Source: an uncultured virus (IMG/VR IMGVR_UViG_3300009152_000029)
Taxonomy: Duplodnaviria > Heunggongvirae > Uroviricota > Caudoviricetes
Reading direction: 5' to 3' (one strand)
Length of the DNA: 64,000 nt
IMG/VR virus record: IMGVR_UViG_3300009152_000029
The notes beneath the pieces are model-generated. The model did no database searches, was not told the origin of the DNA, and was given only the letters and a program-made list of their open reading frames with translations. Made by a program: the position numbers and the translations under genes. Below, piece by piece: positions 45,006 to 64,000 of this stretch. The stretch's first letter is position 1. Each line of letters opens with the position of its first letter.

Positions 45006-45189
45006 TTCCTTAAATGAAATTGAATCAGATAATATTATCACACTGCTAACAAATTTGCTTGAGTCCTGGGAAGATGATAAGATCAATTTACACACTTCAA
45101 TTCAGGATTTTGAGCTCAGCACTATTTATAAGGTATTAAATTTATTTACAGATGAAAGAGAAGATTCAAGCGCTAGCGCAAATTCTTAA
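44977..45189 (+). CDS. hypothetical protein
   Basis: Overlapping ORF chain. Confidence 0.5.
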   Translation: MKEKFLQLSDSLNEIESDNIITLLTNLLESWEDDKINLHTSIQDFELSTIYKVLNLFTDEREDSSASANS

Positions 45190-45373
45190 TGACGATGAAG
45201 CTGCGTTATTATTTCAATTATTATTAAAGAGTTTTGAGACAGCTAATTATCAAAAAGTAGAATATCAAAATAAAGATTTAATTGGAGAACAGTCTTTAAT
45301 GGTAAACGTTGAGTTAGATTTAAAAAACGTGCCTGCAAGAGTAATAGAAAGATTACTAGGACTTTTAAAATGA
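45152..45373 (+). CDS. hypothetical protein
   Basis: Overlapping ORF chain. Confidence 0.5.
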   Translation: MKEKIQALAQILNDDEAALLFQLLLKSFETANYQKVEYQNKDLIGEQSLMVNVELDLKNVPARVIERLLGLLK

Positions 45374-45672
45374 GTACCTTATATCCAGAACTAATAGAAG
45401 AAGATGATGAAGCCACCTTTTCGAGCAATCTTTTTAAATTATATAAGCTTGATGAACGTTGCGGCAAATTAGAGGCACCAAACTTTCGAGTAATATATTT
45501 AAAAGATAAGAAAACCCAAATACATATATCTAATCATTTTAATAGCCCTACATGCATTATATCATATTATAATATAAAAGATAAATCTTGTATCGATGCA
45601 AGAACAATCTCAAAACGATTATATAATAAAATTCATGACCATTATTTCGAGATTAAGAAAAAAATCTTTTGA
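45370..45672 (+). CDS. hypothetical protein
   Basis: Overlapping ORF chain. Confidence 0.5.
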   Translation: MSTLYPELIEEDDEATFSSNLFKLYKLDERCGKLEAPNFRVIYLKDKKTQIHISNHFNSPTCIISYYNIKDKSCIDARTISKRLYNKIHDHYFEIKKKIF

Positions 45673-45727
45673 CACACCCTTAAACATCTGATACTATAAG
45701 ACATCAAACGAAAGGGTCGAAGCCAAA

Positions 45728-46402
45728 ATGACCTTCCAGAGTGTTTTAGAGAGTGTTGATAGCCATAAGGTGAATGGATATAAAGAGTATTGGAATAACA
45801 TTGCTCCACAGACAGATGGAGAATTTTTCCAAAGATGGTTGTTCGCATATACATCAATTCATACTACGTGGGAAAGTAATGTTCGTGCATACAATCATAT
45901 CAAGAATTTCGAGTCTTGGATTAGTGATAAAGACCAACTTGCTCATTTATTATATATAGGTAGAGCAGGTTGTCATAATCAGCGCACAAAGTATATTTGG
46001 GACTTTTCGAGTAAGTTTTGGGCGAATCCAGAAAAGTTTAAAAAGACTAATAGAGAGAACTGGTTTAAGTTTCGCAATCGTCTCTCTCTTGAATTGTGGG
46101 GAATTGGATTAGCAAAAACAAGTTTTGCTCTTGAATTATGTTATCCAGAAAAATGTCAAGCGGTATGTCTTGATGTTCATATGCTCCGTTTACTTGGAAT
46201 GAATGAACAGGGATATAAGAAAGATAACTCTAAAGATGTTGCCGAGTATGAACAAGGCGAAAGAAAATGGCATTATCGAGCAGAGAAAATGAAAGCACCC
46301 AATTATATAGCCAGATGTATTTATTGGGATGTCAAACAAGGTTATAAAAATTCGAGGTATTGGTCTTCTTGTTTAGAGAATCAATTGCACTTTGATTTTT
46401 AA
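45728..46402 (+). CDS. HhH-GPD DNA glycosylase-like protein (second paralog)
   Basis: GIGLAKTSFALEL...VCLDVHMLR; sigma70-like promoter TTGACA..TACTAT upstream. Confidence 0.7.
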   Translation: MTFQSVLESVDSHKVNGYKEYWNNIAPQTDGEFFQRWLFAYTSIHTTWESNVRAYNHIKNFESWISDKDQLAHLLYIGRAGCHNQRTKYIWDFSSKFWANPEKFKKTNRENWFKFRNRLSLELWGIGLAKTSFALELCYPEKCQAVCLDVHMLRLLGMNEQGYKKDNSKDVAEYEQGERKWHYRAEKMKAPNYIARCIYWDVKQGYKNSRYWSSCLENQLHFDF

Positions 46403-46543
46403 AAAGATTGCTACAGGATGATTTTGGCTTCTTGTCCTGTAGCGATTAGAGGGAGAACAATGTCGTTCTCCCTCCCAATAAAGAAGCTTTTATTGTTTGC
46501 GTTATTATGTCTCTTATGATATATTACATTAGAGAGAGCCAAT

Positions 46544-46798
46544 ATGAAAAAGATGCGTGTTACAGTTGTCGCAGAATTCACTGTTCCTGATGGTGTTATT
46601 TTGCACGATACAGTTTTCGAGGCAGAGGGTGTATTCTTTCATCCAGAAATTTCTTTTGATTGCATAGAAATTGACCCATCCTTTCCAGAAGACTTATTAA
46701 GATTTCCTAATGATATTTCTAGCATTGAGGAATTCGAGATAAAAAATATTAGTATGGAATCAAATGTAGAGTATATTGATTTTGAGGAAGCCAAATGA
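46544..46798 (+). CDS. small acidic protein (paralog family A)
   Basis: MRVTVVAEFTVPDGV similar to 46795 and 48334. Confidence 0.55.
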   Translation: MKKMRVTVVAEFTVPDGVILHDTVFEAEGVFFHPEISFDCIEIDPSFPEDLLRFPNDISSIEEFEIKNISMESNVEYIDFEEAK

Positions 46799-47034
46799 AA
46801 ATCAATTTTAAAATTACAGGTACAATGGAAATACCTGATGACGTAATAAAGCACTATGATGTTGCTGGTAAATTATATGCATTAGAATTCAATGACATAA
46901 TGTATATGCTGCAAATGTGTATTGTTGCTGAAGCTGGTGCTGGTGGATATGATATTGTTCATCAATTCGAGGAAATGGAAAATCATAGCATAACTAATGT
47001 GCGCTATGATGATGCAGAATTTTTTGAAGACTAG
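46795..47034 (+). CDS. small acidic protein (paralog family A)
   Basis: MKINFKITGTMEIPDDV...YDDAEFFED. Confidence 0.6.
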   Translation: MKINFKITGTMEIPDDVIKHYDVAGKLYALEFNDIMYMLQMCIVAEAGAGGYDIVHQFEEMENHSITNVRYDDAEFFED

Positions 47035-47239
47035 TGCAGCAAAACAACTTGCTGCAGAAATTAAATACTTAGAGTGGGACCAAGTAACATTTAATTTCTA
47101 TCATAAGAGCTTTAAGGGATATAATTTCTACAAGAGAAATATATCCCTTAATTACTGGCAATACACTGTTGTAGATGATATAACATCCTGTACATTTATG
47201 ATGTACGAGAAAGAAGCCAAAAGATGCCTAACTGGGTAA
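46997..47239 (+). CDS. hypothetical protein
   Basis: Fills the gap in the operon; start uncertain. Confidence 0.45.
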   Translation: MCAMMMQNFLKTSAAKQLAAEIKYLEWDQVTFNFYHKSFKGYNFYKRNISLNYWQYTVVDDITSCTFMMYEKEAKRCLTG

Positions 47240-47856
47240 TGAACGAACTCACCTGTATTTTCCAAACACAGGAAGAGTATAATGTTTTTAAAGAGAAAGT
47301 CAATCTTGAAGGATTGTTCAACTCCTTCATCCCTATGCCTGAAGTTTTAAAGGGAACATCATCTCCTCATCTTGCTCCAGGTGATTATATCAATGAAGTG
47401 AATAAGCACAAGAATACTAATTTTCTTACATTAGAGGAAGTTGCTACTTGTGATGATGAGTGGGTTGTTCATCGTGCTAAAGAGATTATTCAAAACATCA
47501 AAGCGTTCGAGGAAACAGGTTATCATGACTGGTATTCTTGGAACCTTAATAATTGGGGTGTTAAGTGGGATGCTGTAAGACCAACTGCTAAGTATGACCT
47601 TCTTACAATTACCTTTAGTTTTGACTCTCCTTGGGGTTGTCCTGAACACTTTGTCAGAGAGTTGTCTAAACTGTACCCTAACGCTACATTTGAGATGGTT
47701 TCTGGCTCCATTGAAAACGATACCCATTACGAGTTTACCTGTGAAGATGGTAAATTCGAGGAAACCTGCTCCTATGAAACATTTAAGGAAGCAGTAGCAG
47801 ATGGTAAATGGGGCGGATGGGATGAATGGTCTGATATGTTTGAGGAAAGCATATAA
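47224..47856 (+). CDS. DUF1281/YubB ferredoxin-like domain protein
   Basis: MPNWVMN...IPMPEVL...WYSWNLNNWGVKWD...FDSPWGCP. Confidence 0.75.
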   Translation: MPNWVMNELTCIFQTQEEYNVFKEKVNLEGLFNSFIPMPEVLKGTSSPHLAPGDYINEVNKHKNTNFLTLEEVATCDDEWVVHRAKEIIQNIKAFEETGYHDWYSWNLNNWGVKWDAVRPTAKYDLLTITFSFDSPWGCPEHFVRELSKLYPNATFEMVSGSIENDTHYEFTCEDGKFEETCSYETFKEAVADGKWGGWDEWSDMFEESI

Positions 47857-48077
47857 TGACACTCAGAGAACTAATTTTAAAACTTCAAGAATTAGAAAAG
47901 AAATATGAACAGTATAGCCAAGACACTGAAGTTGTAATTGCTGTACATTCTAAAAATGAATTCAACCCAGAAGTATCTTTAGATTATATTGATGAAGTAG
48001 TACATCCCGCTCTAGATACATTCTCTGGTTATATTTGCCGGATTGTCTTATGTGGAGAAATCGAGGGAGAAGACTAA
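47856..48077 (+). CDS. hypothetical protein
   Basis: MTLRELILKLQ phage-type start; TAATG overlap. Confidence 0.6.
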   Translation: MTLRELILKLQELEKKYEQYSQDTEVVIAVHSKNEFNPEVSLDYIDEVVHPALDTFSGYICRIVLCGEIEGED

Positions 48078-48142
48078 ACTATTTCGAGGGGAGATTTTCG
48101 AGTCTCCCCTTTCTTATATGTTAGAGATGATATAATACAGCT

Positions 48143-48334
48143 ATGGAAAACATTAAGTGGATTCGAGCAATGAGTGACCGTTTGAGAGATGAACTTTCGA
48201 GCGAGTATGATGATGAAACAAAAGATTTAATTATTCGAGCTTTTATGCGAGGGTTATATCAAGACCCATCTATAGTAGAAGAACTAAAATCGAGCTCTCT
48301 TATTGAATCTGATTATTTTGAGGATGCAGAGTAA
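48143..48334 (+). CDS. hypothetical protein
   Basis: TGnTATAAT promoter just upstream. Confidence 0.55.
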   Translation: MENIKWIRAMSDRLRDELSSEYDDETKDLIIRAFMRGLYQDPSIVEELKSSSLIESDYFEDAE

Positions 48335-48561
48335 TGAAAGAATTTAAATTTTCAATCACAGGCACTATCTTTGTTCCTGACAATGTAGAGTATGAGTACG
48401 ATTTCGAGAATCAAATCTACTCTTTTAAAATCAATGATAAGACATATTCCTTAATCGCTGGTTTAGAAGCAGATGATAAAGAAATAATTGTAACAGATGA
48501 AAATTTTAAATCTCATGAGCTTGGAATTTTCGAGTATGAGGATGCCTACTTTGAAGATTGA
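48334..48561 (+). CDS. small acidic protein (paralog family A)
   Basis: MKEFKFSITGTIFVPDNV...YEDAYFED. Confidence 0.6.
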   Translation: MKEFKFSITGTIFVPDNVEYEYDFENQIYSFKINDKTYSLIAGLEADDKEIIVTDENFKSHELGIFEYEDAYFED

Positions 48562-48772
48562 AAAATTTATCTATATGGCTGATGGATTCTATGTTTACAA
48601 AATGGAAGAGGGATATGCTGTCAAAGACCAATTTGGATATACTTTAAAAACAGCTAAGACAGTTAAGACTTGCGAAAACTATGTCCAGCTCCAATTACAA
48701 ACAAGACGTGCAGCAGAAAGATACGCAATTGAAAAGATTAATCAAGACAAGAATCAAAGTAGAGCCGTATAA
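48497..48772 (+). CDS. hypothetical protein (start uncertain)
   Basis: ORF chain; weakly similar to the next ORF. Confidence 0.5.
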   Translation: MKILNLMSLEFSSMRMPTLKIEKFIYMADGFYVYKMEEGYAVKDQFGYTLKTAKTVKTCENYVQLQLQTRRAAERYAIEKINQDKNQSRAV

Positions 48773-50478: not shown

Positions 50479-50492
50479 TGTAAAAAAAATAT

Positions 50493-51149: not shown

Positions 51150-51163
51150 ATTTAAAATATAAG

Positions 51164-51346: not shown

Positions 51347-52663
51347 ATGTCGAATACACCTAAATCGTTCCTTGAACTGGACGATGCACCAGTCAAGGTC
51401 ACACCAAACACCTCTGTTTTCACCAATGCCCAGTCCCTTCAACCCCGTGAAGGTGCTGTAGCCAAGCAAGATGCTAGTGGTAATTGGGTGAATGCCATTG
51501 GGCTTCAGTCCTCTGCATCACACCGCCACGTTGCCAAGCAATGGCAGGCTAAATGTACACCGCTTGCCGATTTCATCGAAACAATTAAGTCACAATCGAC
51601 CAACAAGGTAGATGTAATCAAGCCAGAATCAGAAATTCGCCTCAAGGATGTTGAAACCTTGATTGACGGTACACCTCTTACCGATTCAGGTATCAATTCC
51701 TTACGTATGTTCACAGACATTCCATCGTCAATGGTTAACTTTCTCAAGGAAAGGGAATACAACGATGACTTGGTCAAGTTTGTCAATGCAGACTTAGACC
51801 GCCGTGAAACTGACTGGAATAACAAGGGTAAGGAAAAGCGTTCCTTTAATGTCCGCATCCGTCACGATGATGATGGTAACGATGTTATCCGGGCTATTGT
51901 ATCAGAACGATACGGCGTGATTGACAATCACGAAGCAATGGAAATGGTAGCCAATGCTCTGCCATCTTTGAATGATGCTCTTGCTTCACACCTCTTCAAT
52001 GATGGTGATGATATCTATGGGAACATCCTCTTGCCAGACTATATGAAGAGTGAACCAGACTCTGACTATGGCGTGGGCATTGCATTCAAGAACAGTGAGA
52101 TTCGTAATTCAACATTCAAGATTTCGCCTTTCCTGTTTAGAGCAATCTGCCTCAATGGTATGATATGGGGACGTATGAATTCAGAAATCAACGTCAACCA
52201 ACGCCATATGGGTAAGATTGACCTTGGAGACCTTCAATTGCAAGTTACCCAAGCAATCAAGGTTGCATTGACACAAGGCAATGATATGTTGACCTTGTTA
52301 GGATATGCAAAGCAAGTCAAGGTTAAGAACCCTGTTGCTGTAATTGCTCAGTTGGCTAGGGATGAAAAGATGACCATCGAACAGGGTAAACTCTGGCACA
52401 AGGGCTACTTGGATTCCTTGCACGAACGCCACGGCGATGTTCACGAAAAGTCTGCCTTTGGTATCATCAATGGCTTGACCCGCTCTGCCCAAGATTACAC
52501 CGGGGCAACCCGTGAAGAGATGGAAACCTTAGCAAGCAAGATACTTGCACCATCCATTGATTCTTCATTGGAAGAGATTTCCAAGCGATGGGGTCTAATT
52601 GACGCTAGAGCAAACCAAATGGAAGAAAAGGTCTCACGACAATACCAGTTTGTGGGCGTTTAG
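51347..52663 (+). CDS. DUF932-family protein
   Basis: RAIVSERYGVIDN, GIAFKNSE, FLFRAICLNGMI, RHMG. Confidence 0.75.
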   Translation: MSNTPKSFLELDDAPVKVTPNTSVFTNAQSLQPREGAVAKQDASGNWVNAIGLQSSASHRHVAKQWQAKCTPLADFIETIKSQSTNKVDVIKPESEIRLKDVETLIDGTPLTDSGINSLRMFTDIPSSMVNFLKEREYNDDLVKFVNADLDRRETDWNNKGKEKRSFNVRIRHDDDGNDVIRAIVSERYGVIDNHEAMEMVANALPSLNDALASHLFNDGDDIYGNILLPDYMKSEPDSDYGVGIAFKNSEIRNSTFKISPFLFRAICLNGMIWGRMNSEINVNQRHMGKIDLGDLQLQVTQAIKVALTQGNDMLTLLGYAKQVKVKNPVAVIAQLARDEKMTIEQGKLWHKGYLDSLHERHGDVHEKSAFGIINGLTRSAQDYTGATREEMETLASKILAPSIDSSLEEISKRWGLIDARANQMEEKVSRQYQFVGV

Positions 52664-52789: not shown

Positions 52790-52876
52790 AAAAAAATTTG
52801 TCAATTTTTTTTATTTCAAATATAGTACTTGCACACCATATACACAGATGGTAATATTCTAGTGAGGAAACCTATT

Positions 52877-54985
52877 ATGAAAATCGCTGAATCGACAATT
52901 CAAGTCCAGTCATCTGGCATCCAGTCCGAAGCATTCTTTACTGTCAAGCAGTCTAACATTGGTCATATCTTTGGCATTCTCCGCAACCAGTTGTATAGCA
53001 ACAAGCCTCTTGCCATCATTCGTGAATACTGCACAAATGCATTTGACGCACACATTGATGCAGGTATTCCAAGCCGACCGATTGAGGTATCATTCCCAAC
53101 AGCATTCAAGAATTCTTTGACTATCCGTGATTTTGGCAAGGGTCTGTCAGAGTCTGAAGTTTACAATATCTTTGTTTCGTATGGCGAATCAACCAAACGT
53201 GGAACAAATGAGCAGGTTGGAATGTTGGGTCTTGGTAGCAAGTCTGCATTCTGTTATGTAAACGATTTCACCATCACGTCATATCACAATGGTGTAAAGT
53301 CAGTTTACCTCGCATATATTGATGAAACCAACATCGGTAAGATTTCCAAGATATCTGAGGAAGCAACATCTGAAACTGGATTGGCAATTGATATCGTTGT
53401 TAAGACAATCGACCTGTCCCAATTCCGTGAGGTAGCAGGTTCGTTCCTTGCAGAATTCAACCCACAGCCAATAGTTAAGAATGATGACCGGGTTGTAAAT
53501 TTGTTGCAACGTCAGGTCGAAAAATCTTTCGTTGTCAGTACTGAAGACTATGCTATTCACACTTGGGGATTCAATCAAAAGTCTTGTGTCAGAATGGGGA
53601 ATGTTAACTATCCATTTCACATTGATGATTTGGGTTTGACGAGTGATGAATTCAAGACTGTAGAGTGCTTCCGCAATCTAAAGGTTAAGCTCTATGCCCC
53701 GATAGGTAGTGTTGTTCCATCTGCCTCCCGTGAATCTTTGGAAATGAATACAAAGACCAAACAATATATCTTTGAGGCACTGAAAGGAATTCATTCCACA
53801 GTCAAGGGTCAAATTGATGAGAGACTATCTGAATGCAAGAGTTTCTATCAATTTGCTCTTGAATTTGAAAACACTAATCAGATAAGAGATGTTTTTAATC
53901 TCATTTCAATCTATGGTGGCAAAGCATATAGAACAAATTCCAATATGCTTCTTTACAGGAAAGATTACCCTGCCATTAAGGAGATAGAAGAAATCCGAAA
54001 TGATGCACGTTCGTCATTCAAAAATTCATCATCTCTGAACATAGTAGAGGGACAAACCTTATTTGCCTACTATGGCAATGTCCCTCAAAATTCGATTCGC
54101 CAGAGAATTATGAATTCTGGTTATTCAAAGTTGTCGGGATTCCTTTTGCGTTTTGCGTCAAAGGCTGATTGCGATTCAATTGTTAACCACCCAGAATGGC
54201 AGGGTGCAAATTTTGTCGATGTATCAACATTGCAATACAGCAAGGTCACAGGCAAATCTGCTGGGTCGTTTGCCACAAGCGAAGTCTACAGTTATTGTCC
54301 CCATCAAAGCACCTTGCGAAACACTTGGAAATCGACCACGCTTTCTCTCCAACAATCCGAAGGAATCTATGTTGAGATTAAGCGATTCCTCCCTGTAGCC
54401 AAACACCCTAATGGTACAAATATTAAGACAATGGAAGCATTCAAAGAATTGCTGTCCAATGCTCATACATTAGGAATCAGATGTGACAACATTTACGGTG
54501 TCAAGTATTGCGACATTGAAAAATTGGGTTCTGGATGGATTGAGATAACTGATTACATCCAGCAGTCGCTTTACAATCAAACCGATGAAGAAATTATGAA
54601 ATTCAATCAGTATCTGATATCGCTTGATGTGTCTGATGAATGGCAATATGCCTTCAGAAAAAATATGGTAGACACTGACAGAGACTTAACCCGTCTAAAG
54701 GAAATCATATCAGAGTATTACAGTTCTGGTTTGTCCATTTCAAACCAAGGTGAAAGAGTTTCATTCCTTAAGAAGCAAGGTTATGGTTTGTATCTTGACA
54801 TTTACAATGAATGCATAGAATTAGTAGATAAAACCCTAATTAAATACCCAATTTTGCGTAATTTGTTCGGATATTCACAAAAATCATCACATTATAGTGA
54901 ATCTCCGACCGAAAAGTACTGGTATATTGTCAATGAGTACCTTAAGTCGCAAGATTATCTGAAAAGTGAGGGCTTATTGGACTAA
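52877..54985 (+). CDS. rIIA: rIIA-like protein (GHKL ATPase N-terminus)
   Basis: LYSNKPLAIIREYCTNAFDAH, IRDFGKG, YGESTKR, GMLGLGSKS, ASRESL; adjacent to rIIB; GAGG RBS before ATG 52877. Confidence 0.85.
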   Translation: MKIAESTIQVQSSGIQSEAFFTVKQSNIGHIFGILRNQLYSNKPLAIIREYCTNAFDAHIDAGIPSRPIEVSFPTAFKNSLTIRDFGKGLSESEVYNIFVSYGESTKRGTNEQVGMLGLGSKSAFCYVNDFTITSYHNGVKSVYLAYIDETNIGKISKISEEATSETGLAIDIVVKTIDLSQFREVAGSFLAEFNPQPIVKNDDRVVNLLQRQVEKSFVVSTEDYAIHTWGFNQKSCVRMGNVNYPFHIDDLGLTSDEFKTVECFRNLKVKLYAPIGSVVPSASRESLEMNTKTKQYIFEALKGIHSTVKGQIDERLSECKSFYQFALEFENTNQIRDVFNLISIYGGKAYRTNSNMLLYRKDYPAIKEIEEIRNDARSSFKNSSSLNIVEGQTLFAYYGNVPQNSIRQRIMNSGYSKLSGFLLRFASKADCDSIVNHPEWQGANFVDVSTLQYSKVTGKSAGSFATSEVYSYCPHQSTLRNTWKSTTLSLQQSEGIYVEIKRFLPVAKHPNGTNIKTMEAFKELLSNAHTLGIRCDNIYGVKYCDIEKLGSGWIEITDYIQQSLYNQTDEEIMKFNQYLISLDVSDEWQYAFRKNMVDTDRDLTRLKEIISEYYSSGLSISNQGERVSFLKKQGYGLYLDIYNECIELVDKTLIKYPILRNLFGYSQKSSHYSESPTEKYWYIVNEYLKSQDYLKSEGLLD

Positions 54986-55082: not shown

Positions 55083-55209
55083 AAAAAATATATGCAAGAA
55101 AATATTTTTTTCGAGCTTGCACTATTTATTTTTCGAGTTTGGCTTGCAGATGATTGTAGATATGGTAAACTGGTATATCGTTCCAGTTATAAAGGTAAAA
55201 AGAAACACT

Positions 55210-56355
55210 ATGACCGTTACAGCCCGTATTGTAAATCCTGACCCTCAATCAGGTTTCATTACTGTAGTATTGGATGGCAAGTCCCATTCAATCAACGCAG
55301 GAAACAAATTGTTCACGAATGCTTTAGAAGCATATAAGGTAAATGACTGGGATGCATTCATCTCTTTTGTCAATCCAGAATTGCGCCTTAAGAGCCTCTA
55401 TGCCAAGTATGAGGGCATTGAAGTTAAGGATGGCAACCTCTACGTCTTTGATGAGCCAGTTCACTCCACTCTTGCAACCCGTGTGCTTTCGTTCCTTGAG
55501 GCAGGGTTGGATTGTGTACACCTCTTCAAGTTTATCTTGAAGTTAAACCTCAATCCATCAAAACGTGCAGTCGATGAATTGTACACCTTCCTTGAGCATC
55601 GTGCATTGCCTATCACAGATAATGGCAATTTCTGTGCTTACAAAGCAGTCCGTGAAGATTACACCGACAAGCACTCTGGCAAGTTCCTCAACACTGTAGA
55701 TGCAGTTCTTGAGATGCCACGCAACAAGGTGGACGATGATAAGAATATTGGATGTTCATATGGCTTTCACGCTGGAACCATTGAATATGCAAAGCAATTT
55801 TCAGGTGGGTATGGTCACATTATGTTGGTGGAAATCAATCCATCTGACGTTGTATCCATTCCAACCGACTGTGAATTCCAGAAACTCCGCACCTGTAAGT
55901 ATAAGGTAGTTGGGGAGTATGAAATCGACCTCACTGACCCATTGTATGCTTCACGCTTCCAGACTGACCAAGATGATGATGTTGATATCTGGAACGATGA
56001 TGATGAAGAAGACCTCTGCTCTGGTTGCGATTCAGAATACAATTCTTGGTGTTGTGAGTGTGAACAGTGCGGAAACTGTTGCGACTGTGAGAATGAGGAT
56101 GAGGAATCTAAGACTGAAATCCAATTGACTCTTCCTCTTGACAACAAGATTCAGAGTGTAGATTGGACGAAGCAAACGGTCAATCTTATCCAATTGGTTG
56201 GTCATCTGTTCTCATCTCGTCGTCCGGCTTTGGCTATGTCAATCAGACGTGAGTTTGATTTCTATGATGACCAGACCCGGATTGCCTTTGAGACACTCCT
56301 TCATCATACTACCCAAGATGATGTCAAGCGCATCTACAACGAACTGAACCCATAG
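55210..56355 (+). CDS. rIIB: rIIB-like protein with Cys-rich acidic C-terminal extension
   Basis: NPSKRAVDELYTFLEH..LPITD.G...YKAVR.DYTD, EMPRNKVDDD...CSYGFH, VEINPSDVVSIP.D...KLRTCKYKVV. Confidence 0.88.
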   Translation: MTVTARIVNPDPQSGFITVVLDGKSHSINAGNKLFTNALEAYKVNDWDAFISFVNPELRLKSLYAKYEGIEVKDGNLYVFDEPVHSTLATRVLSFLEAGLDCVHLFKFILKLNLNPSKRAVDELYTFLEHRALPITDNGNFCAYKAVREDYTDKHSGKFLNTVDAVLEMPRNKVDDDKNIGCSYGFHAGTIEYAKQFSGGYGHIMLVEINPSDVVSIPTDCEFQKLRTCKYKVVGEYEIDLTDPLYASRFQTDQDDDVDIWNDDDEEDLCSGCDSEYNSWCCECEQCGNCCDCENEDEESKTEIQLTLPLDNKIQSVDWTKQTVNLIQLVGHLFSSRRPALAMSIRREFDFYDDQTRIAFETLLHHTTQDDVKRIYNELNP

Positions 56356-56517: not shown

Positions 56518-57267
56518 ATGCCGTATGTTTATCAAGCTGGTGTGTTTACAAGTATTGCAATTAATTTGGGATTAGCTGATAAGCAATTTCAAGATGAATT
56601 GTTGCTTTTAGCTGGGACTGCTGCTTCATATACCAAGACAACTCGTGACTTAATTATTGATTCTTGGGATAATAGCAGCACTGACGCAAATACTGATTCT
56701 ACATTAACACTTTCACAAGCTTTAAGAAGTGCTGAAATTTCTTTGCCATCAACCATTGATCCTGTATATTCTGGGACTTTAGGAGCTTTGAATTCATATT
56801 TCAATGCTGTAGTCGGAGAATCATTCAGAGATTACTTTAATTCAAAAACAACTAGTAGAACAGTAAATTTCGTACAAACTACACCAACATCAACTGGCAC
56901 TGGCTTATCAAGCTTTAGAGACATATATAGAAGAACTTACAATAACGAATTGATTTACAAGCTGCACGAGAGAAATACTGCTGGAACATTTTCAGGAACA
57001 TCAGGTACATATGATAATGCTGGTGCTCTTTTAGAAGTAAGAAAATACGGGGCAGCAAATAGTACTGGAACAATTAGCTTAAGTTGTGTTAGAGCAAATG
57101 ATGGCGGAAGTGATGCTATTGTTTTATCATACACTGCTGGTATTCTTGTCACATACACAAATGCTGCAAAATTAACAACACTTGACAGACGATACTTATA
57201 TGTTTCAGGTGTTGCTATAACTGGAATGTCTGGTTCTGGAGCCAGTTTCGAGGTTTGGACTAGATAA
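56518..57267 (+). CDS. putative virion structural protein
   Basis: T/S/G/A-rich; AGG-N18-AGAAA promoter at 56471-56496. Confidence 0.55.
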   Translation: MPYVYQAGVFTSIAINLGLADKQFQDELLLLAGTAASYTKTTRDLIIDSWDNSSTDANTDSTLTLSQALRSAEISLPSTIDPVYSGTLGALNSYFNAVVGESFRDYFNSKTTSRTVNFVQTTPTSTGTGLSSFRDIYRRTYNNELIYKLHERNTAGTFSGTSGTYDNAGALLEVRKYGAANSTGTISLSCVRANDGGSDAIVLSYTAGILVTYTNAAKLTTLDRRYLYVSGVAITGMSGSGASFEVWTR

Positions 57268-57309: not shown

Positions 57310-57387
57310 TTATTTTTTTGTCAAAGAAAAATAAATGTATAGATAGTTCTTGAATCGGCTAACCCTAATGGTATAATATTAGCGTAT

Positions 57388-57468
57388 CCTCCGGTGGTGG
57401 AACGGTATACACGACGGACTTAAAATCCGTTGGCGCAAGCCTTACGAGTTCGAATCTCGTCTGGAGGA
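57388..57468 (+). tRNA. tRNA-Leu(UAA)
   Basis: CCTCCGG/CTGGAGG acceptor, ACGGA-CTTAAAA-TCCGT anticodon arm, long variable arm, TTCGAAT T-loop; CCA not encoded. Confidence 0.9.
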
Positions 57469-57472
57469 TTTT

Positions 57473-57589
57473 GAGAGAGGTTAGACAAAAGAGTAATCTG
57501 AGTCTTGTCGTGAAAGAAATTTTTAATGTGAAGTGGGAATTGTGCTCTGGATAACTAGTCTCCATCACAGGCAACACATAACCTCTTTC
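57473..57589 (+). ncRNA. unidentified structured RNA between tRNAs
   Basis: Ends pair over 11 bp (GAGAGAGGTTA/TAACCTCTTTC) enclosing two stem-loops. Confidence 0.4.
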
Positions 57590-57598
57590 TTTTAGTTT

Positions 57599-57670
57599 GG
57601 TTCCATAGCTTAACGGTAAAGCAGAATCCTTTTAAGATTTTGAGTGCAGATTCGACTTCTGCTGGAGCCA
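57599..57670 (+). tRNA. tRNA-Lys(UUU)
   Basis: GGTTCCA/TGGAGCC acceptor, GAATC-CTTTTAA-GATTT, GCAGA-TTCGACT-TCTGC. Confidence 0.88.
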
Positions 57671-57770
57671 CTTTTCACTTGTCTTATCTCCACAAGTGAA
57701 ACCAATCCCCTTCTCCGACAAGAAGGGGATTTCCTATTGCAGTACATACAACATATGATATAATACAGGT

Positions 57771-58370: not shown

Positions 58371-58445
58371 AAAAATATTGATCAAATAATTTTTTAAACT
58401 TGCATACCCTAAAGATATATCGTATTATGAATAAGAGGAAGCCAA

Positions 58446-59177
58446 ATGTCTATCGTTTTAAATAATGAATCTTGTCTTGATTTTTTGCCTCGTGTTGCAG
58501 ATAAATCAGTAAATCTTGTTTTGATTGACCCACCATATACAATTTCACGAGCAACAGGATTCGAGAGTTGTGGAGAGAAGGGTGTTGAAAGATTTAAGAT
58601 GTCCTATGAATTTGGAGAGTGGGATAATGAAATCTTTGTTCTTGATAAGGTTATGGAAGAATCTTATCGTATCCTCAAGCCAGGTGGAACATTAATTTGT
58701 TTCTATGACTTGTGGAAAATCGAGACTCTTAAGAATTGGATTGAGAGTGCCAAGTTTAAGCAACTCCGGTTTATTGAATGGGTAAAGACAAATCCTGTTC
58801 CTATCAATTCGAAGATTAATTATCTCACCAATTCAAGAGAGATAGCCCTTACTGCTATCAAAGGAAGTAAACCAACATTTCATTCTCAATATGATAAGGG
58901 AATTTATGAGTTTGCAATCTGTCATGAGAGAGACCGTTTCCATCCTACTCAAAAGCCTCTCAATTTACTGCAAGCTTTAATTACCAAACACTCCAATGAA
59001 GGCGATACTGTTTTGGATTGTTTTGCTGGCTCTGCTTCTTGTGCAGTGGCTTGCTATAACACTGGACGAAACTTTATGGGTTGTGAATTGGATGAAACTT
59101 ATTACACAAAAGCAACAGAGAGAATCGCTAAATTAAATGACAAAAGTACAAATGTTTCTTCAAGCGTCACAACCTGA
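58446..59177 (+). CDS. N6-adenine/N4-cytosine DNA methyltransferase (beta class)
   Basis: LIDPPY precedes HPTQKP and VLDCFAGS. Confidence 0.9.
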   Translation: MSIVLNNESCLDFLPRVADKSVNLVLIDPPYTISRATGFESCGEKGVERFKMSYEFGEWDNEIFVLDKVMEESYRILKPGGTLICFYDLWKIETLKNWIESAKFKQLRFIEWVKTNPVPINSKINYLTNSREIALTAIKGSKPTFHSQYDKGIYEFAICHERDRFHPTQKPLNLLQALITKHSNEGDTVLDCFAGSASCAVACYNTGRNFMGCELDETYYTKATERIAKLNDKSTNVSSSVTT

Positions 59178-59733
59178 TAGTGATGGTAAAACTCGTCTTT
59201 GGCTATATAGTGAATTGGAAACTTTATATCCCGGCGTAGAATTCCAAACTAAAAATGGTGGAGATTGGAACCGCTCTGATGGACAATTAAAAGATTTCAT
59301 TGTTCATAGAGAAAAAGATAAAAATCGCACTATAGGAATTCGTCTTGATGGTTATAGAGAAACATCAATTGAAAAACGTATACGAACTGATATTTTCAAA
59401 TCAATAAGAAAACAAAGATGCCGTGTTGTTGATGTTGGTGGAGAAAATATCGAGTGTGACCATAAAGACGGACGATATAGTTCTGATACTTATAATAGCG
59501 TAGAAAATCAAAATGAAGATGATTTTCAGCCATTATTGAGGAACGTAAATTTATCAAAGAGAACTCATTGTAAGACGTGTGAGGAAACAAATGAAAGATA
59601 CGATGCAAAAAGGCTTGGTTATTCATTTGGATGGATTGTTGGAGAGTCTAATTATGCAGGCACTTGTGTTGGATGCTATTGGTATGACCCTAGGCAATTT
59701 AATAAAGTAATCTCCAAAGATTATAAACCTTGA
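59137..59733 (+). CDS. IceA1/NlaIII-like HNH restriction endonuclease
   Basis: NGGDWNR, IRLDG, IECDHKDGR, DFQPL...N..KR..CK.C, C.GCYWYDP; overlaps the MTase gene. Confidence 0.7.
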   Translation: MTKVQMFLQASQPDSDGKTRLWLYSELETLYPGVEFQTKNGGDWNRSDGQLKDFIVHREKDKNRTIGIRLDGYRETSIEKRIRTDIFKSIRKQRCRVVDVGGENIECDHKDGRYSSDTYNSVENQNEDDFQPLLRNVNLSKRTHCKTCEETNERYDAKRLGYSFGWIVGESNYAGTCVGCYWYDPRQFNKVISKDYKP

Positions 59734-59757
59734 CAATAGTGTTTTCTTAATGTACAC

Positions 59758-60132: not shown

Positions 60133-60390
60133 ATGAACGACATTCTTCTAAAAGTAGATTTTCCAGTAAAACCACAAACCCTTTATCTATATAAGGGTAA
60201 ATATAAGGTTATTAAAGATGAATTTTTAGAAGGAGTGAATGTCATTAGAACTTATAAATGCTCCGAAGGTTATTTCAGTTATACTTCTATATGGCATCCA
60301 GGTTTTCAGTACCATTATGAAATAGAAACCGAAAAATGTAAATCAAGATTCTTTGAGGGCGAATGGTTTGAAATTATTGATGGTGGATAG
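60133..60390 (+). CDS. hypothetical protein
   Basis: ATG start MNDILLK preferred over the GTG inside the upstream hairpin. Confidence 0.5.
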   Translation: MNDILLKVDFPVKPQTLYLYKGKYKVIKDEFLEGVNVIRTYKCSEGYFSYTSIWHPGFQYHYEIETEKCKSRFFEGEWFEIIDGG

Positions 60391-60445
60391 CTTAAATAAA
60401 GCAGAGGAATAAACCTTTGATATGGGTGTAAGTCCCATTCCACCT
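60381..60445 (+). pseudogene. degenerate tRNA-like element
   Basis: GGTGGA/TCCACC acceptor, GCTT/AAGC D-stem, 6-nt anticodon loop, ATGGG-TGTAAGT-CCCAT T-arm. Confidence 0.5.
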
Positions 60446-60449
60446 TTTG

Positions 60450-60522
60450 GGGCGATTAGCTTAATGGTTAAAGCAGGGGACTCATAATCCCTTGAGTGGG
60501 GGTTCGAGTCCCTCATCGCCCA
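60450..60522 (+). tRNA. tRNA with CAT anticodon (Ile2-like; Met not excluded)
   Basis: GGGCGAT/ATCGCCC acceptor, GGGGA-CTCATAA-TCCCT, TTCGAGT T-loop; resembles bacterial ileX. Confidence 0.88.
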
Positions 60523-60638
60523 TTGTTTCTGGTTGGTTGGTGTTTTGCATGTCCTACTCCTCCCCTCATTGAAATATATGAGGGGATTTTTTTTGACACT
60601 GCTATAACTTTATGATATATTGTTTGTAGAGAAATATT

Positions 60639-60830
60639 ATGCCAAACGATACATTAAACTATTTATCAGACAAATCAGAACACGATTTGCTGGTCATTCT
60701 TGAGGGATTTAAACTACTCTTGGCTGATGCAGAATTATTTGATATGCTTGCTGAAAAGTTAGATATATCTGACGATGTTCTTGTTGAAATCCGTGAAGAT
60801 ATTAGCAAGTTTATGGCAGACGAGGTATAA
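60639..60830 (+). CDS. small acidic protein
   Basis: TTGACA promoter upstream. Confidence 0.55.
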   Translation: MPNDTLNYLSDKSEHDLLVILEGFKLLLADAELFDMLAEKLDISDDVLVEIREDISKFMADEV

Positions 60831-60840
60831 TTTACCTATT

Positions 60841-60927
60841 GGAAGAGTGAGCAGAATGGTATTGCAACCGCCTTGAAAGCGGTCTCACCCTTGACGGGGT
60901 GTGCGGGTTCGAATCCTGTCTCTTCCT
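60841..60927 (+). tRNA. tRNA-Ser(UGA)
   Basis: GGAAGAG/CTCTTCC acceptor, ACCGC-CTTGAAA-GCGGT, long variable arm, TTCGAAT. Confidence 0.88.
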
Positions 60928-60951
60928 TATTCCATAAATAAATAAAACACT

Positions 60952-61242
60952 ATGACACTAGAACAAGCAAATAAAATTAGAGACAGAGTGGATGAATTAA
61001 ATAAATTATATCCAATCAAACTGCGTTACCAGATGATTTGCACAAGTCTTAATAATTTTGCTGTCACCATCACTTTTAATTACACTGAAAATGAGTGGAT
61101 GGAATTTTACGGTATCAATCATATTTATGCTCAAGTTATGGATAAGCTTAATGGATATCAGTTTGCCTTGGAAGCAATACAAGCATATCAAGAAGAGTAT
61201 GGCAATTTAAAGTTTTCTCAATCTGACTTGCCTTTGGGGTAG
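60952..61242 (+). CDS. hypothetical protein
   Basis: ORF followed by a terminator. Confidence 0.55.
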   Translation: MTLEQANKIRDRVDELNKLYPIKLRYQMICTSLNNFAVTITFNYTENEWMEFYGINHIYAQVMDKLNGYQFALEAIQAYQEEYGNLKFSQSDLPLG

Positions 61243-61327
61243 GATAAATAATAAAACAGATTGAGTCTCATCCCTTCCAGTTTAGTAGTGTTTTCTGGAA
61301 GGGATTTTTTATTTGCATTTTATTTTC

Positions 61328-61349
61328 AGGCATTGAGTATACAATGCCT
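61328..61349. repeat. palindrome family variant
   Basis: AGGCATTG-agtata-CAATGCCT. Confidence 0.7.
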
Positions 61350-61443
61350 GATTTTATTATTAAAAATATTTGTTTTGGTGTTCCCAATACGTTGACAATG
61401 TATATATTATCCGAGTATACTATCAATGAAAGGAAGCCATACA

Positions 61444-61776
61444 ATGAGTGTAACAGTTGATTCGGATAAGCGTAAGGTTGGCAATCCTGAATGGAATTTT
61501 GTTCTTCCATATAATGAAGCCAGACTTATTGTCAAAAAGTATAAATTCAAATCAATGAGAGAATATACTGAATGGGTGAGAGAAGAGAAGCCATATGGTT
61601 TATCTACCAATCCATATCAAGTATATACTCGTCGTGGTGAGTGGGTTGGTACTGCTCACTATCTTGGTAAAATTGATTCAATTGTCCAAGAAGACCAGAA
61701 CGTCCACGAAGAAAAGCCCGTTAAATTCTGGAAGATTAGTAACATAATCAAACAGATATTCGGTCTTGGTCAATAA
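61444..61776 (+). CDS. phage-integrase-repeat-like domain protein
   Basis: LPYNEARLIV...KSMREYTEW...P.GL.TNP.QVY...EW.G..HYLG; AGGAAGCC leader gives start 61444. Confidence 0.6.
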   Translation: MSVTVDSDKRKVGNPEWNFVLPYNEARLIVKKYKFKSMREYTEWVREEKPYGLSTNPYQVYTRRGEWVGTAHYLGKIDSIVQEDQNVHEEKPVKFWKISNIIKQIFGLGQ

Positions 61777-61829
61777 ACAATTAGGATACACAATGAAGTG
61801 TATCCTAAAATTTTTTGTCAATAAGCTCT

Positions 61830-61851
61830 AGGAATGGTAATTACCATTCCT
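61830..61851. repeat. 22-bp palindrome family member
   Basis: AGGAATGGT-aatt-ACCATTCCT. Confidence 0.8.
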
Positions 61852-61977
61852 GAAATTTTTATGCAAATAAAAAATATATTCTAAAATATATAGCATAGTT
61901 TGTTGACAACATATAGTAGTTAGGTTATACTACTGGTGTAAGAACAACATAGTTAGTTCTTAGTTGAGAGAAGCCAA

Positions 61978-62463
61978 ATGGAAGATATTTACCCGTACAG
62001 TTATGCAAAGTCCTATGCAATGGGCAGTAAGTTCAAGACGATTAAACAGTACTCCGATGCTGTCAAGGCAGAAGGTCTCAGTTTTCACGCTGACCCTAAG
62101 CGTTACTCCGAGTATACCTCAGCCCATGAGTTCTTGGGTTACACCAAAGAGGAATACACCAAAGTCAAGTGTTCCGTAATGGTGTCTAACCGAAACCAAT
62201 CTGCGGTCAATGCTAAGATTAGGGCAACTTGGGCAAAGAACCGGGTATCACGTCAAGAAACGGCTGGTCAACTACCTTTGCCAAAGCCTAGCCAGTTGAA
62301 GGCTTTTACACCTGAAGAGGTTGTTGACATTCTAGTAAAGTCTAATGCAAGCAGTGAATACATTGCGGACTTTATCAAGACGCACAAGGTCAACAGTGAG
62401 TATGCTGTTGCGGTTTTGATTGACTTGTTGAAGCAAAGCCTTCCATCCGCAGTCACAGTCTAA
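61978..62463 (+). CDS. hypothetical protein, N-terminus weakly like the integrase-repeat unit
   Basis: YSYAKSYA...KTIKQY...DPKRY..Y...EFLG; GAAGCCAA leader. Confidence 0.55.
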   Translation: MEDIYPYSYAKSYAMGSKFKTIKQYSDAVKAEGLSFHADPKRYSEYTSAHEFLGYTKEEYTKVKCSVMVSNRNQSAVNAKIRATWAKNRVSRQETAGQLPLPKPSQLKAFTPEEVVDILVKSNASSEYIADFIKTHKVNSEYAVAVLIDLLKQSLPSAVTV

Positions 62464-62518
62464 CCTGACTATCTCCCCTCCAGAAGTGGAGGGGAGAATA
62501 ATCTTGACAAAATACTTA

Positions 62519-62539
62519 AGGCATTGTAGTACAATGCCT
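62519..62539. repeat. palindrome family variant
   Basis: AGGCATTGT-agt-ACAATGCCT. Confidence 0.7.
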
Positions 62540-62612
62540 ATTGACAATTGTCAAATTTTTTCATAAAATACTTATGCATGAAAATGCAAAATAAAGTTTC
62601 AAGGTAAATGAA

Positions 62613-62813
62613 TTGAAGAAAATTCACCTCTCTAATTTCCGTAAGAAGTTTGATGACAAGTCTTACCAGGCTGTCAAGGATGCTATTGGTAAGAATGCTT
62701 TTTTAGCTAATGAAATCAATATCAATAAGATTATTGATAGTATTACAGACCCAGTCATTAAGAAGAATTTTGTCAAGTGGTCTGATGGTTATGATTTTGC
62801 AATTCTTAATTAA
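62613..62813 (+). CDS. hypothetical protein
   Basis: TTG start with AAGG RBS. Confidence 0.5.
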   Translation: MKKIHLSNFRKKFDDKSYQAVKDAIGKNAFLANEININKIIDSITDPVIKKNFVKWSDGYDFAILN

Positions 62814-63034
62814 AAAGGTTTACTCTTAACATTTTTAGTAATAAGAAACTAGTTTGGTTCTCACGGAGTAAAAAAAGAAAAATTTCTGTTTTTACCATCC
62901 AGATGTTGATAGGTATATTGCCCTTAAGTCAATAATCTAGCAGGCCAACAAATATCCCTCTTTTCAGTAAGAGGGATATTTTTATTTGACAACTCCCAAT
63001 ATATGCGTTATTATATACACATAAGGAGAGCGAT

Positions 63035-63382
63035 ATGGGACTTGATAACCTTTGGAAAAAAAATGACAACGAAGACGCTATGGTAGAAGGCGATTTTTGC
63101 ATCTGTGGCGGTCTATGTTCTGACAATGGAAACTCTTCATTTCGTGGTAAAGTTTATGCTCGTTTTGTAGAAGATGTCACTGGTGTTTGTTTGTATGGCG
63201 ACCCAAAAACTTCCAAAATTTCAAACGAAACTGTAAAGCAGATGGCAACTGACTTGGAAGAAACTGAATGGCGAGATTCTTACATCCAAAACTATGATAT
63301 TGAAGAGCAAGAGTTTAAAGACCTTGCTAGGATGTTTAGACTTCACGCTGATGCTGGTCATTACTTGGTTGCTTTTTATTAA
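63035..63382 (+). CDS. hypothetical phage protein
   Basis: MGLDN start; AAGGAG RBS; TTGACA promoter. Confidence 0.7.
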   Translation: MGLDNLWKKNDNEDAMVEGDFCICGGLCSDNGNSSFRGKVYARFVEDVTGVCLYGDPKTSKISNETVKQMATDLEETEWRDSYIQNYDIEEQEFKDLARMFRLHADAGHYLVAFY

Positions 63383-63636
63383 TGACTATCAATCTACGTA
63401 AAAACATAGCACGGTTTATCTACATTATTGACCAAACAACAAATGTAGAAAGCCGTGCAAAAATTCTCAAAGAACTAGACCTAACTGAAAATGAATTTCA
63501 GGAGCTGGTAGTGAATCTATTGAAATTTAGTAATTCTAATAATAGGGAATTTTATTGCTGCAATCCTGAATATCATGGATTTATTGAAACATTCAAAATT
63601 ATTTCAGAAAAAACAAATACAGAGTTCTTAATCTAA
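63382..63636 (+). CDS. hypothetical protein
   Basis: TAATG-coupled. Confidence 0.55.
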   Translation: MTINLRKNIARFIYIIDQTTNVESRAKILKELDLTENEFQELVVNLLKFSNSNNREFYCCNPEYHGFIETFKIISEKTNTEFLI

Positions 63637-63748
63637 GTGCATCTGCGTTGAATATTATGTATAATATTATCAGACCTTAGTCAAATAAGGCAATAAAAAA
63701 CAGGCAAGACCCCTCCACTTGCCTGTTTTTTATTTAACAATTATCTTA

Positions 63749-63770
63749 AGGTGTGGTAAAGACCACACCT
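63749..63770. repeat. 22-bp palindrome family member
   Basis: AGGTGTGGT-aaag-ACCACACCT. Confidence 0.8.
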
Positions 63771-63920
63771 TTATAAATTTGTCAAAATATTTTTTTCAGC
63801 TCTAAAATAGGTAACTTTTTTTGTTACATATCTCCCGATTTCTATTGCACACTTTTAAAGTATGCCTTATACTATCTTTGTCAGTAAGGAAAAGCCCTTA
63901 ACTGTTGTTTGGAGAAGACA

Positions 63921-64000
63921 ATGTTTGAAGACCTTACACCCTTGAACGAGATTCGTTCAGTGGAACCAACCGTTTCATTCACCCGTAACCAGAACTCTGG
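63921..64000 (+). CDS. hypothetical protein (partial)
   Basis: GGAG RBS, then ATG; open to the window end. Confidence 0.45.
   Translation, partial: MFEDLTPLNEIRSVEPTVSFTRNQNS

Follow-up and report, generated by a model that had tools for sequence, protein, structure and literature searches.

Why does a four-base palindrome that is common in most of a phage genome all but vanish at one point and stay away for tens of kilobases? The question is raised by a 64,000-nucleotide stretch of DNA (the window) from the uncultured virus IMG/VR IMGVR_UViG_3300009152_000029 (Caudoviricetes), in which GATC is abundant up to position 45081 and almost absent beyond it. An earlier note on the window had called this a GATC desert coinciding with an early-gene region and had proposed that the segment enters the host first and must escape a GATC-directed, perhaps methyl-directed host enzyme. 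Here, we found that the desert is a single block of 31.2 kb, that several other palindromes are missing from it as well, that selection on the DNA maintains it through synonymous codon choice, and that related phages have the same block independently of their methyltransferases. The explanation that we favor, with moderate confidence, is position-specific avoidance of host Type II restriction in DNA that is exposed before the phage is protected, i.e., a staged exposure of the genome.

On a virus contig of 358,269 bp, the window occupies G000:C1:169585-233584 of the minus strand; this one contig is classed as linear in IMG/VR and has a CheckV completeness of 89%. Its genes include those for a large terminase and a portal, for a replisome of bacterial type (PolIII alpha, DnaB, clamp loader, and gyrase A/B), and for RecA, RNR, chaperones, and several sigma factors, and its source is an uncultured freshwater jumbo phage. 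Nineteen DNA runs, all of them freshwater/lake metagenomes, each contained half or more of the words sampled from a 10-kb stretch. Megablast of window positions 45000-64000 and 20000-44000 found no close cultured phage relative, and tblastn with the rIIA homolog encoded in the block gave at most 33% identity to cultured phages.

Palindromes avoided in one block

Four features define the desert; positions past the end of the window are given as window-equivalent coordinates.

45081..45084, no strand: last GATC before the desert, i.e., its left edge, inside a small open reading frame (ORF; 44977-45189) just after the UvdE gene
45082..64000, continuing to window-equivalent 76267, + strand: restriction-site-poor early block, 2 GATC in 31,186 bp, ORFs nearly all on the + strand
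56518..57267, + strand: fast-evolving ORF holding GATC 56758, without a family match in Pfam, PHROGs, or NCBIfam
58380..58383, no strand: the desert's second GATC, intergenic, between ORFs 57771-58265 and 58446-59177

The window contains 105 GATC sites, and 103 of them are found no further right than 45081. The two exceptions, at 56758 and 58380, are precisely those that the earlier note had read from the letters, and its statement that GATC is plentiful before that point also held. Computed ratios confirmed that the two sides differ strongly: to the right of 45085, 2 sites were found vs. 67.6 (Markov) or 62.6 (base composition) expected (observed/expected ratio, O/E, 0.03), whereas the left side had 103 vs. 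169.3 or 133.9 expected (O/E 0.61-0.77). Across all 358,269 bp there are 741 GATC sites, spaced at a median of 304.5 bp. Two GATC-free gaps exceed all others, those from 58380 to 76268 (17,888 bp) and from 45081 to 56758 (11,677 bp), and the next largest anywhere is 4,181 bp. The desert thus continues 12 kb past the end of the window, the next GATC being at window-equivalent 76268, and within it GATC occurs twice vs. 68-109 times expected (O/E 0.02 vs. 0.63 in the remainder of the genome, or bulk); no other region of the 358 kb resembles it. Its left edge is sharp and its right edge gradual, with three GATC sites in 76.3-79.4 kb and the usual density resuming near 79.4 kb.

GATC has been removed by context-dependent synonymous codon choice, and selection therefore operates at the level of the DNA across all three reading frames. 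In the desert, when a C-starting codon follows, Asp is written GAT only once in 50 cases vs. 341 of 467 in other contexts (Fisher, 2e-24), a contrast without counterpart in the bulk (503/692 before a C-starting codon vs. 4245/5584 otherwise; p = 0.06). The earlier remark that Asp-Pro is written GATCC on the left and GACCC on the right is a special case of this rule. Likewise, desert Ile is never encoded by ATC after a G-ending codon (0/87 vs. 173/522 in other contexts; 2e-14), nor is Ser encoded by TCN after an xGA codon (0/10 vs. 428/601). Non-coding DNA follows the same trend, with one GATC in 4,929 bp of the desert vs. 23 in 14,652 bp of the bulk.

When 2,666 words of 4-6 bases were contrasted between the desert and the rest of the genome, GATC was by a wide margin the most desert-specific depletion (p = 8e-27). 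While "GATC desert" is correct as far as it goes, the name is too narrow, since several other palindromes share its boundaries. These are GGCC (5 vs. 25-33 expected, p = 1e-6; O/E 0.15 vs. 0.76 in the bulk), GGWCC (3 vs. 18 expected; O/E 0.17 vs. 1.09; for GGACC, 3 vs. 18-20, p = 4e-6), CCWGG (7 vs. 31 expected; O/E 0.23 vs. 0.77; for CCAGG, 7 vs. 24-31, p = 6e-5) and, more weakly, AGCT (52 vs. 86-90 expected, p = 5e-5). The non-palindrome CACC ranked third, its depletion being relative only (161 seen vs. 151 expected from the desert's composition). The palindromes TCGA, CCGG, TTAA, ATAT, and AATT are not avoided in the desert. Since the avoided words are palindromes and other palindromes are spared, the pattern points to readers of specific double-stranded sequences rather than to RNA or to a general property of palindromes.

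Avoidance of the block-specific words is not genome-wide: GATC, GGCC, GGWCC, CCWGG, AGCT, GCWGC, and GCGC have a bulk O/E of 0.6-1.25. Two other words behave differently. CGCG has no site in any of the three large genomes that we compared (this one, G000, 358 kb; and two relatives, G001, 166 kb, and M, 319 kb merged), where ~89, 41, and 55 would be expected (Markov). CATG is depleted throughout this genome (O/E 0.15 in the bulk and 0.23 in the desert, vs. 0.67-0.79 in G001 and M).

Related phages and their methyltransferases

Searches of IMG/VR that used as probes rIIA, UvdE, and an alignment of the DUF932 gene from the block yielded six further lineages: G002 (26.5 kb), G003 (28.5 kb), G001 (the same phage as G004; 166 and 92 kb), L040, L043, and M. 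The last comprises G005, G006, and a third contig of one phage, with G005 and G006 merged into 319,031 bp through a 99.998%-identical overlap. L018 and L019 are the loci of G002 and G003, respectively. Where measured, rIIA identity to the window was 54, 44, 37, and 34%, and because identity is only 34-54%, silent sites are saturated. All six lineages showed the drop in GATC, as follows.

G002: outside the block, 16 GATC in the first 4.3 kb; inside, 15 in 22.2 kb
G003: outside the block, 8 GATC in 1.5 kb; inside, 9 in 27.1 kb
L040: outside the block, 24 GATC in 3.4 kb; inside, 9 in 17.9 kb
L043: outside the block, 10 GATC in 2.4 kb; inside, 6 in 18.9 kb
G001: outside the block, 447 GATC in 136.9 kb; inside, 4 in 29.0 kb
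M: outside the block, 953 GATC in 291 kb; inside, 5 in 27.8 kb

The three large genomes have one desert apiece and no more (28-31 kb), and those of G001 and M (28-29 kb) are bounded on both sides, with a contrast to the bulk that is the same as or stronger than in G000. The avoided-word set is wider in the relatives and varies from one lineage to the next. The strongest desert-specific depletions in G001 are GATC, AGCT (13 vs. 82-84 expected), GCAGC (1 vs. 20-24), GGCC (0 vs. 21-27), CCAGG (2 vs. 20-25), and GGACC (0 vs. 14-15). Of 2,671 words compared in M, the seven that rank highest are GATC, AGCT, GGCC, CCAGG, GCGC, GGACC, and GCAGC, and the desert's edges drawn from GATC (11,213 and 38,978) agree within ~1 kb with those drawn from AGCT (10,211 and 40,042). 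In L043, CTAG is absent vs. 27 expected.

The block does not look like a recently acquired island. L018 and L019 are collinear with the window and have the edge at the syntenic point (3254 in L018 and 1463 in L019), with a 4.5-kb insert inside the L019 block, and the block is also present in G001, L040, L043, and M. A natural control is furnished by the gene at the left edge:

44088..45005, + strand: UvdE UV-endonuclease (Pfam PF03851, 1.4e-42), just outside the desert, with 2 GATC

Where this gene lies outside the block, it has GATC: 2 sites in the window, 4 in L018/G002, and 5 in L019/G003. In G001, where gene order differs, the ortholog (~74-76% identical; 130231-130989) lies inside the block and has none. 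Avoidance therefore follows position rather than gene history, and this contrast, together with conservation in six of six relatives, rules out the recent acquisition that the earlier note had named as an alternative.

The same note had tied the desert to the phage's own Dam. Candidate genes of restriction-modification (R-M) type in the window include the following.

35350..36159, + strand: Dam-family (D12) methyltransferase (PF02086, 7e-62; TIGR00571, 259.6 bits), outside the desert, the genome's only D12 match
36137..36637, + strand: PD-(D/E)XK nuclease gene (PF20472, 1.1e-33), overlapping the end of the Dam gene
58446..59177, + strand: N6_N4-class DNA methyltransferase (PF01555, 4.4e-32)
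59137..59733, + strand: IceA/NlaIII-family endonuclease-like gene (PF05315, 2.8e-30 over residues 2-191 of 198), overlapping the end of the methyltransferase

In total, this genome encodes one Dam-family and two N6_N4 enzymes and no C5 methyltransferase. G001 has one N6_N4 enzyme and a D12 enzyme that is only 24% identical to that of the window and is placed inside the G001 desert. For M, a six-frame search of G005/G006 (319 kb, with ~40 kb of M unrecovered) found no D12, N6_N4, or C5 methyltransferase, and yet its desert is as clean as the others. Since M keeps its desert, the proposed link to a phage Dam fails; since its bulk is rich in sites (953 GATC and 1,507 AGCT), phage methylation cannot explain why the bulk keeps them.

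The PD-(D/E)XK gene had no NCBIfam match and no homolog in G001, L018, L019, or L020. It is followed by a T5orf172 gene, and this stretch (35350-37290) varies among co-occurring strains, run X8 having an indel from 37333 to 38411; the three genes together may be an R-M-like or homing module. The pair at 58446-59733 is a lineage-specific insertion, absent from the syntenic place in L018 and L019. Because CATG is strongly depleted in this genome alone, the pair may represent a phage-borne R-M system of CATG type, a specificity that we presume from the family namesakes of IceA/NlaIII. The window differs from the genome copy at one base in 64,000, at 59175; this base precedes the end of the methyltransferase ORF by 2 bases, and in the genome copy that ORF has one codon more (58446-59180).

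Anatomy of the block and its borders

The block contains ~65 ORFs with a mean of ~100-150 amino acids, nearly all on the + strand, an arrangement also seen in G001 and M. Beyond the right edge, in this genome and in G001, the genes switch to the - strand. Searches of the block's ORFs against Pfam and PHROGs gave names to an Ogg-like glycosylase, a DUF932 protein, rIIA, rIIB, a TPR protein, a helix-turn-helix (HTH) regulator, and a Tad2-like protein, and the block also holds four transfer RNAs (tRNAs). The other genes are ORFans without a Pfam or PHROGs family.

51347..52663, + strand: DUF932-family gene (Pfam PF06067, 1.6e-6; phrog_1362), 57-90% identical in relatives
52829..54985, + strand: rIIA homolog (phrog_612, 2.9e-89; HATPase_c_3)
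55117..56355, + strand: rIIB homolog (phrog_609, 5e-62)
57387..57671, + strand: tRNA-Leu(taa) at 57387-57469 and tRNA-Lys(ttt) at 57599-57671, in the block
60450..60927, + strand: tRNA-Met(cat) at 60450-60522 and tRNA-Ser(tga) at 60841-60927, in the block
60593..63014, + strand: five near-consensus sigma-70-type promoters, TTGACA-N17/18-TATAnT, 11/12 matches
window-equivalent 72972-73193 (L001:10808-11029, minus of the locus): Tad2-like (Thoeris anti-defence 2) protein, adjoining the HTH regulator, 53% identical in G001

The five promoters start at 60593, 61392, 61903, 62541, and 62986, each before a small + strand ORF and with terminators between them. Between 45 and 64 kb, the window has 98 sigma-70-like sites vs. 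68.3 +/- 8.4 in shuffles and 29 terminator-like sites vs. 10.5 +/- 3.2. Of 111 strict + strand promoter matches in the genome, 23 fall in the block, which makes up 8.7% of its length. In four of five lineages, a sigma-70-like + strand promoter is found between -89 and +328 bp relative to the left edge, and here three lie within 900 bp of it. One RNA library (X20) has contigs that are 85-95% alike, coming from a relative, on block genes at 45698-45913, 46136-46332, 47552-47760, 48193-48361, 52693-53454, and 54245-54479, with almost none in 36-44 kb; these contigs do not demonstrate transcription, their scarcity elsewhere is no evidence either, and they were left unused.

The left edge is also marked by a repeated motif:

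40215..48529, + strand: dense array of the polar heptamer WTTCGAG, 41 copies vs. ~1.3 expected, straddling the left edge; sparser copies extend over 36038-64952

Fifty-five of the genome's 65 + strand copies of WTTCGAG fall in window positions 36-65 kb vs. ~5 expected there. CTCGAA has no copy in that range, and the complement of the heptamer does not occur between 34 and 78 kb. The 55 copies are spread over the three frames of + strand genes (18, 6, and 10), over - strand genes in antisense (7), and over intergenic DNA (14); being independent of frame and present in genes of both orientations, they constitute a strand-locked DNA signal. The signal is a bare heptamer without a flanking consensus, and a few copies form the loops of terminator hairpins. 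In all seven lineages, a polar WTTCGAG array coincides with the left edge or lies no more than 2 kb from it: it straddles the edge in G002, G003, L040, and L043, and it stops 1-2 kb before it in G001 and M, where sub-arrays occur inside the block (ranges 122338-152838 in G001 and 5886-28051 in M). Candidate functions of the array are an entry stop, end protection (Chi-like), or a packaging signal. As the array accompanies the left edge throughout, the genome end that the earlier note had placed near this TTCGAG zone stays a candidate.

At the far end of the low-GATC zone, G001 has a tight GATC cluster, with nine sites in 230 bp (156276-156506), six of which overlap a promoter-like box (TTGACA) that lies between divergent genes; this cluster may be a methylation-sensitive promoter or origin-like element. 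The far-end cluster of the present genome lies at window-equivalent 79498-80004 (L001), without an equivalent intergenic cluster. A replication origin or pac site was considered for these clusters and not adopted, given the promoter overlap in one genome and the missing intergenic counterpart in the other.

Proposed staged exposure and its rivals

The pattern calls for an agent that reads specific double-stranded palindromes, varies by lineage, and acts on a fixed 9% of the genome, and host Type II restriction is the simplest fit. We propose that the block would be a ~31-kb host-takeover (early) segment whose ~65 mostly tiny genes are read from host-type promoters. It would be in the cytoplasm and working before restriction is neutralized, the rest of the genome being exposed only afterward, and one of its edges would then be a genome end or an entry stop. 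Selection would clear from it the short palindromes cut by those Type II enzymes that the clade meets (GATC, GGCC, GGWCC, and CCWGG here, with AGCT, GCWGC, and GCGC added in the relatives), leaving the remaining ~90% of the genome near normal. Staged entry could take the form of a two-step injection, as in T5, or, as in T7, of entry that is slow and coupled to transcription. Progressive, T7-like entry from the left would suit the single gene direction, the promoters at the sharp edge, and the gradual transition at the far edge; T5-like entry from the right, halted at the array, would suit the array at the left edge and a repeat boundary that may lie at 42.09 kb. The early-exposed segment of the earlier note thus gains indirect support from position-dependent avoidance, selection, the six relatives, and the one-directional small genes with host-type promoters; what is lost is the Dam- and GATC-specific part.

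Several observations weigh against staged exposure. In all seven lineages contigs bridge the left edge, and here an X1 contig (43963-45830) crosses it unbroken; the two ends of the record are distant from the block. Headful packaging with permuted ends, common among jumbo phages, would not give a fixed first-entering segment. Neither T5 A1/A2 nor a known anti-restriction homolog was found in the block by Pfam or PHROGs. The deserts are not absolute, with 2-15 GATC remaining across lineages, and one gene, the ORF at 56518-57267, keeps GATC in all four lineages in which it was located: 1 in the window, 7 in L018 of G002 (ortholog 14000-14764; sites 14075-14666), 2 in L019 (12505-13266; 12580 and 12595), and 1 in G001 (137393-137959; 137583). 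This ORF, which the earlier note had labeled late-type and for which no family supports that label, is far more divergent than its neighbors (29-50% identity) and has its own flanking terminators. Moreover, the absence of CGCG from all three large genomes and the scarcity of CATG here imply that the bulk is not immune to every enzyme.

Depth of coverage also places its step elsewhere. In X1, a source-like run, perfect-match contigs have depths of 26.6 and 29.2 to the left of ~42.09 kb, rising to 51.9-57.3 between that point and 55.6 kb; the ratio is similar (~1.7-1.9) in X8 and X14. This roughly twofold step thus lies at ~42.09 kb and not at 45.08 kb. It falls (~42083-42103) inside an NrdG-like radical-SAM gene (42026-42601) and coincides with a contig break and a strain-variable island, i.e., with loose ends of X14 at 41967 and 42001, strain indels, and the start of homology to G002. 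The step might mark where a long terminal repeat that includes the block begins on its inner side, as in T5; it would arise just as readily if several strains were mixed and had the conserved side in common. Contig ends are no clearer a guide. The ends of the present contig share an imperfect 545-bp direct repeat (97%; positions 120-664 of the reverse-complement [RC] genome and the last 545 bp of the contig), in which the assembly probably broke, and the contig's GC skew was uninformative for termini. Among the relatives, G002 and G003 end inside the block, G005 starts inside it, and G001 and G004, two assemblies of one phage, break off 6-10 kb past the right edge at points no more than 780 bp apart, so that no consistent picture emerges. 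The large terminase (L006:2-2113; phrog_2) is at most 27% identical to its nearest cultured relatives. Streptomyces phage Comrade, a distant terminase relative, has no annotated repeat in its first 16 kb, and no packaging mode was deduced from it.

A fuller version of staged exposure can be put forward tentatively, and we think it more doubtful than the general one. In it, this freshwater clade of ~360-kb phages would deliver the genome in stages, with a ~30-kb site-free "landing pad" going first. The WTTCGAG array would delimit one side of the pad as an entry-stop, Chi-like, or packaging signal, and the pad would set up methylation-independent protection of the other >300 kb against at least seven Type II specificities. 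The region of twofold depth from 42.09 kb would be a terminal repeat of >13 kb containing the pad.

The main rival of staged exposure is that the whole genome enters together, the bulk being shielded by a non-methyl modification, by co-injected or condensing proteins, or by a compartment, and the early block being left bare for the host RNA polymerase. This accommodates the sequence facts equally well, including the closeness of the left edge to a host-type promoter in four of five lineages, and it would explain how the bulk tolerates sites with no methyltransferase. Many genes for sugar-nucleotide enzymes, glycosyltransferases, and ThyX-like and dUTPase/dCTP-deaminase-like proteins could serve DNA modification. 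We nevertheless consider shielding unlikely, as no known modification system spares one 30-kb stretch, modifications made in the nucleotide pool would be uniform, and no modification pathway was identified in the genome, while the genome-wide absence of CGCG indicates that even the bulk still avoids the sites of at least one specificity. It is quite improbable that the words are avoided for a reason other than cleavage, such as host methyltransferases, DNA-binding proteins disturbing early transcription, or a signal in the RNA. The block is indeed the window's densest part in promoters and terminators, and methyltransferases read the same palindromes as their nucleases; against this, only a subset of palindromes is avoided, lineage by lineage as restriction repertoires vary, avoidance is equal in coding and non-coding DNA, and the avoided words are all symmetric, which favors readers of double-stranded DNA over RNA.

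The version in the earlier note, a single GATC-directed and perhaps DpnI-like enzyme with a desert that exists since the phage Dam methylates GATC, appears very improbable and is largely refuted. It could draw on the Dam-family gene at 35350-36159 and on GATC being the strongest single signal in all three large genomes. However, at least three other palindromes share the GATC boundaries here and six do so in the relatives, and the desert of M persists without D12, N6_N4, or C5 enzymes. Nor is the Dam gene conserved: it sits in a stretch that varies between co-occurring strains, and the D12 enzyme of G001 is both divergent and sited elsewhere. Hardly tenable, finally, is a mosaic import of the block from a phage lineage in which GATC is avoided throughout, with a composition that has yet to drift to that of the resident genome. 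The block's slightly higher G+C (0.363 vs. 0.334 elsewhere) and the lineage-specific insertions (the methyltransferase/IceA-like pair here and the 4.5 kb in L019) would suit such an origin. Yet the same block with the same edges occurs in all six relatives at 34-54% rIIA identity, UvdE is without GATC only where it lies inside the block, context-dependent codon choice means that selection is still acting, and the set of avoided sites differs by lineage.

Restriction-free first-entering DNA is already known from T5 and T7, and the present block would be an unusually large case, the new elements being its scale, its natural controls, and the polar motif array. In T5-like phages, Type I and Type II R-M systems are described as acting only if their sites lie in the first-step-transfer DNA, without methylation (PMC10644984; Davison and Brunel, 1979, as cited there). 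As in T5, BF23, and other Tequintavirus members, sites here are missing from one stretch and present in the rest of the genome, and, going by the published description, T5 shares the small genome fraction and the small takeover genes of unknown function read from host promoters; the heptamer array may correspond to its repeat-rich border zone. The pre-early homologs A1, A2, and dmp are not among the Pfam and PHROGs matches of the block; therefore, the resemblance is one of function and layout, not descent. By the same description, the block is ~3 times longer than the ~9.7-kb repeat of T5 and BF23, BF23 has two inversely oriented units whereas the genes here lie almost all on one strand, and the T5 border is non-coding with DnaA boxes whereas the heptamer array lies mostly inside genes. 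Terminal repeats and two-step injection are known from T5 and would be predictions for the block.

Genomes of T7-like phages are ~40 kb. In T7-like Autographiviridae, a study on a Type I motif reports that only motifs in the leading region decide restriction sensitivity, and that this region is variable and carries anti-defence genes (PMC12455610). The block resembles it in that its genes are co-oriented and its leading end has host-type promoters, an arrangement that would suit DNA drawn in with the help of host RNA polymerase, and its sharp near edge and gradual far edge fit progressive entry. It differs in that seven Type II-like palindromes in a ~360-kb genome stand in place of the Type I motif of that study. 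No Ocr-like gene was recognized, the ORFs in 44977-45672 and most others being without a Pfam or PHROGs match, a comparison limited to sequence families. At the left edge, the 153 bp preceding the first promoter-like site contain GATC sites, leaving almost no room there for a site-free terminus. Genome-wide avoidance, as in the GATC-free Twort-like phages of Staphylococcus, shares with this genome the synonymous removal of sites and, for CGCG, the extent; it differs in that the other seven words are avoided in the block only.

It is poorly understood how unmodified jumbo-phage DNA, several hundred kilobases long, gets past restriction, and in seven lineages the sequence marks the 9% that would survive unprotected. 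The block is a compact list of ~65 candidate genes for host takeover and anti-defence, and it predicts where to seek a genome end, an entry-control signal, and a broad, methylation-independent anti-restriction function. The set of avoided sites would also serve as a fingerprint of the restriction enzymes in each lineage's hosts. As a separate observation bearing on the host, a phage gene at L002:12606-13502 (window-equivalent ~90.1-91.0 kb) encodes a prepilin-type N-terminal methylation motif and DUF1559, a domain that we take to be common in Planctomycetota and Verrucomicrobiota and that may thus hint at the host.

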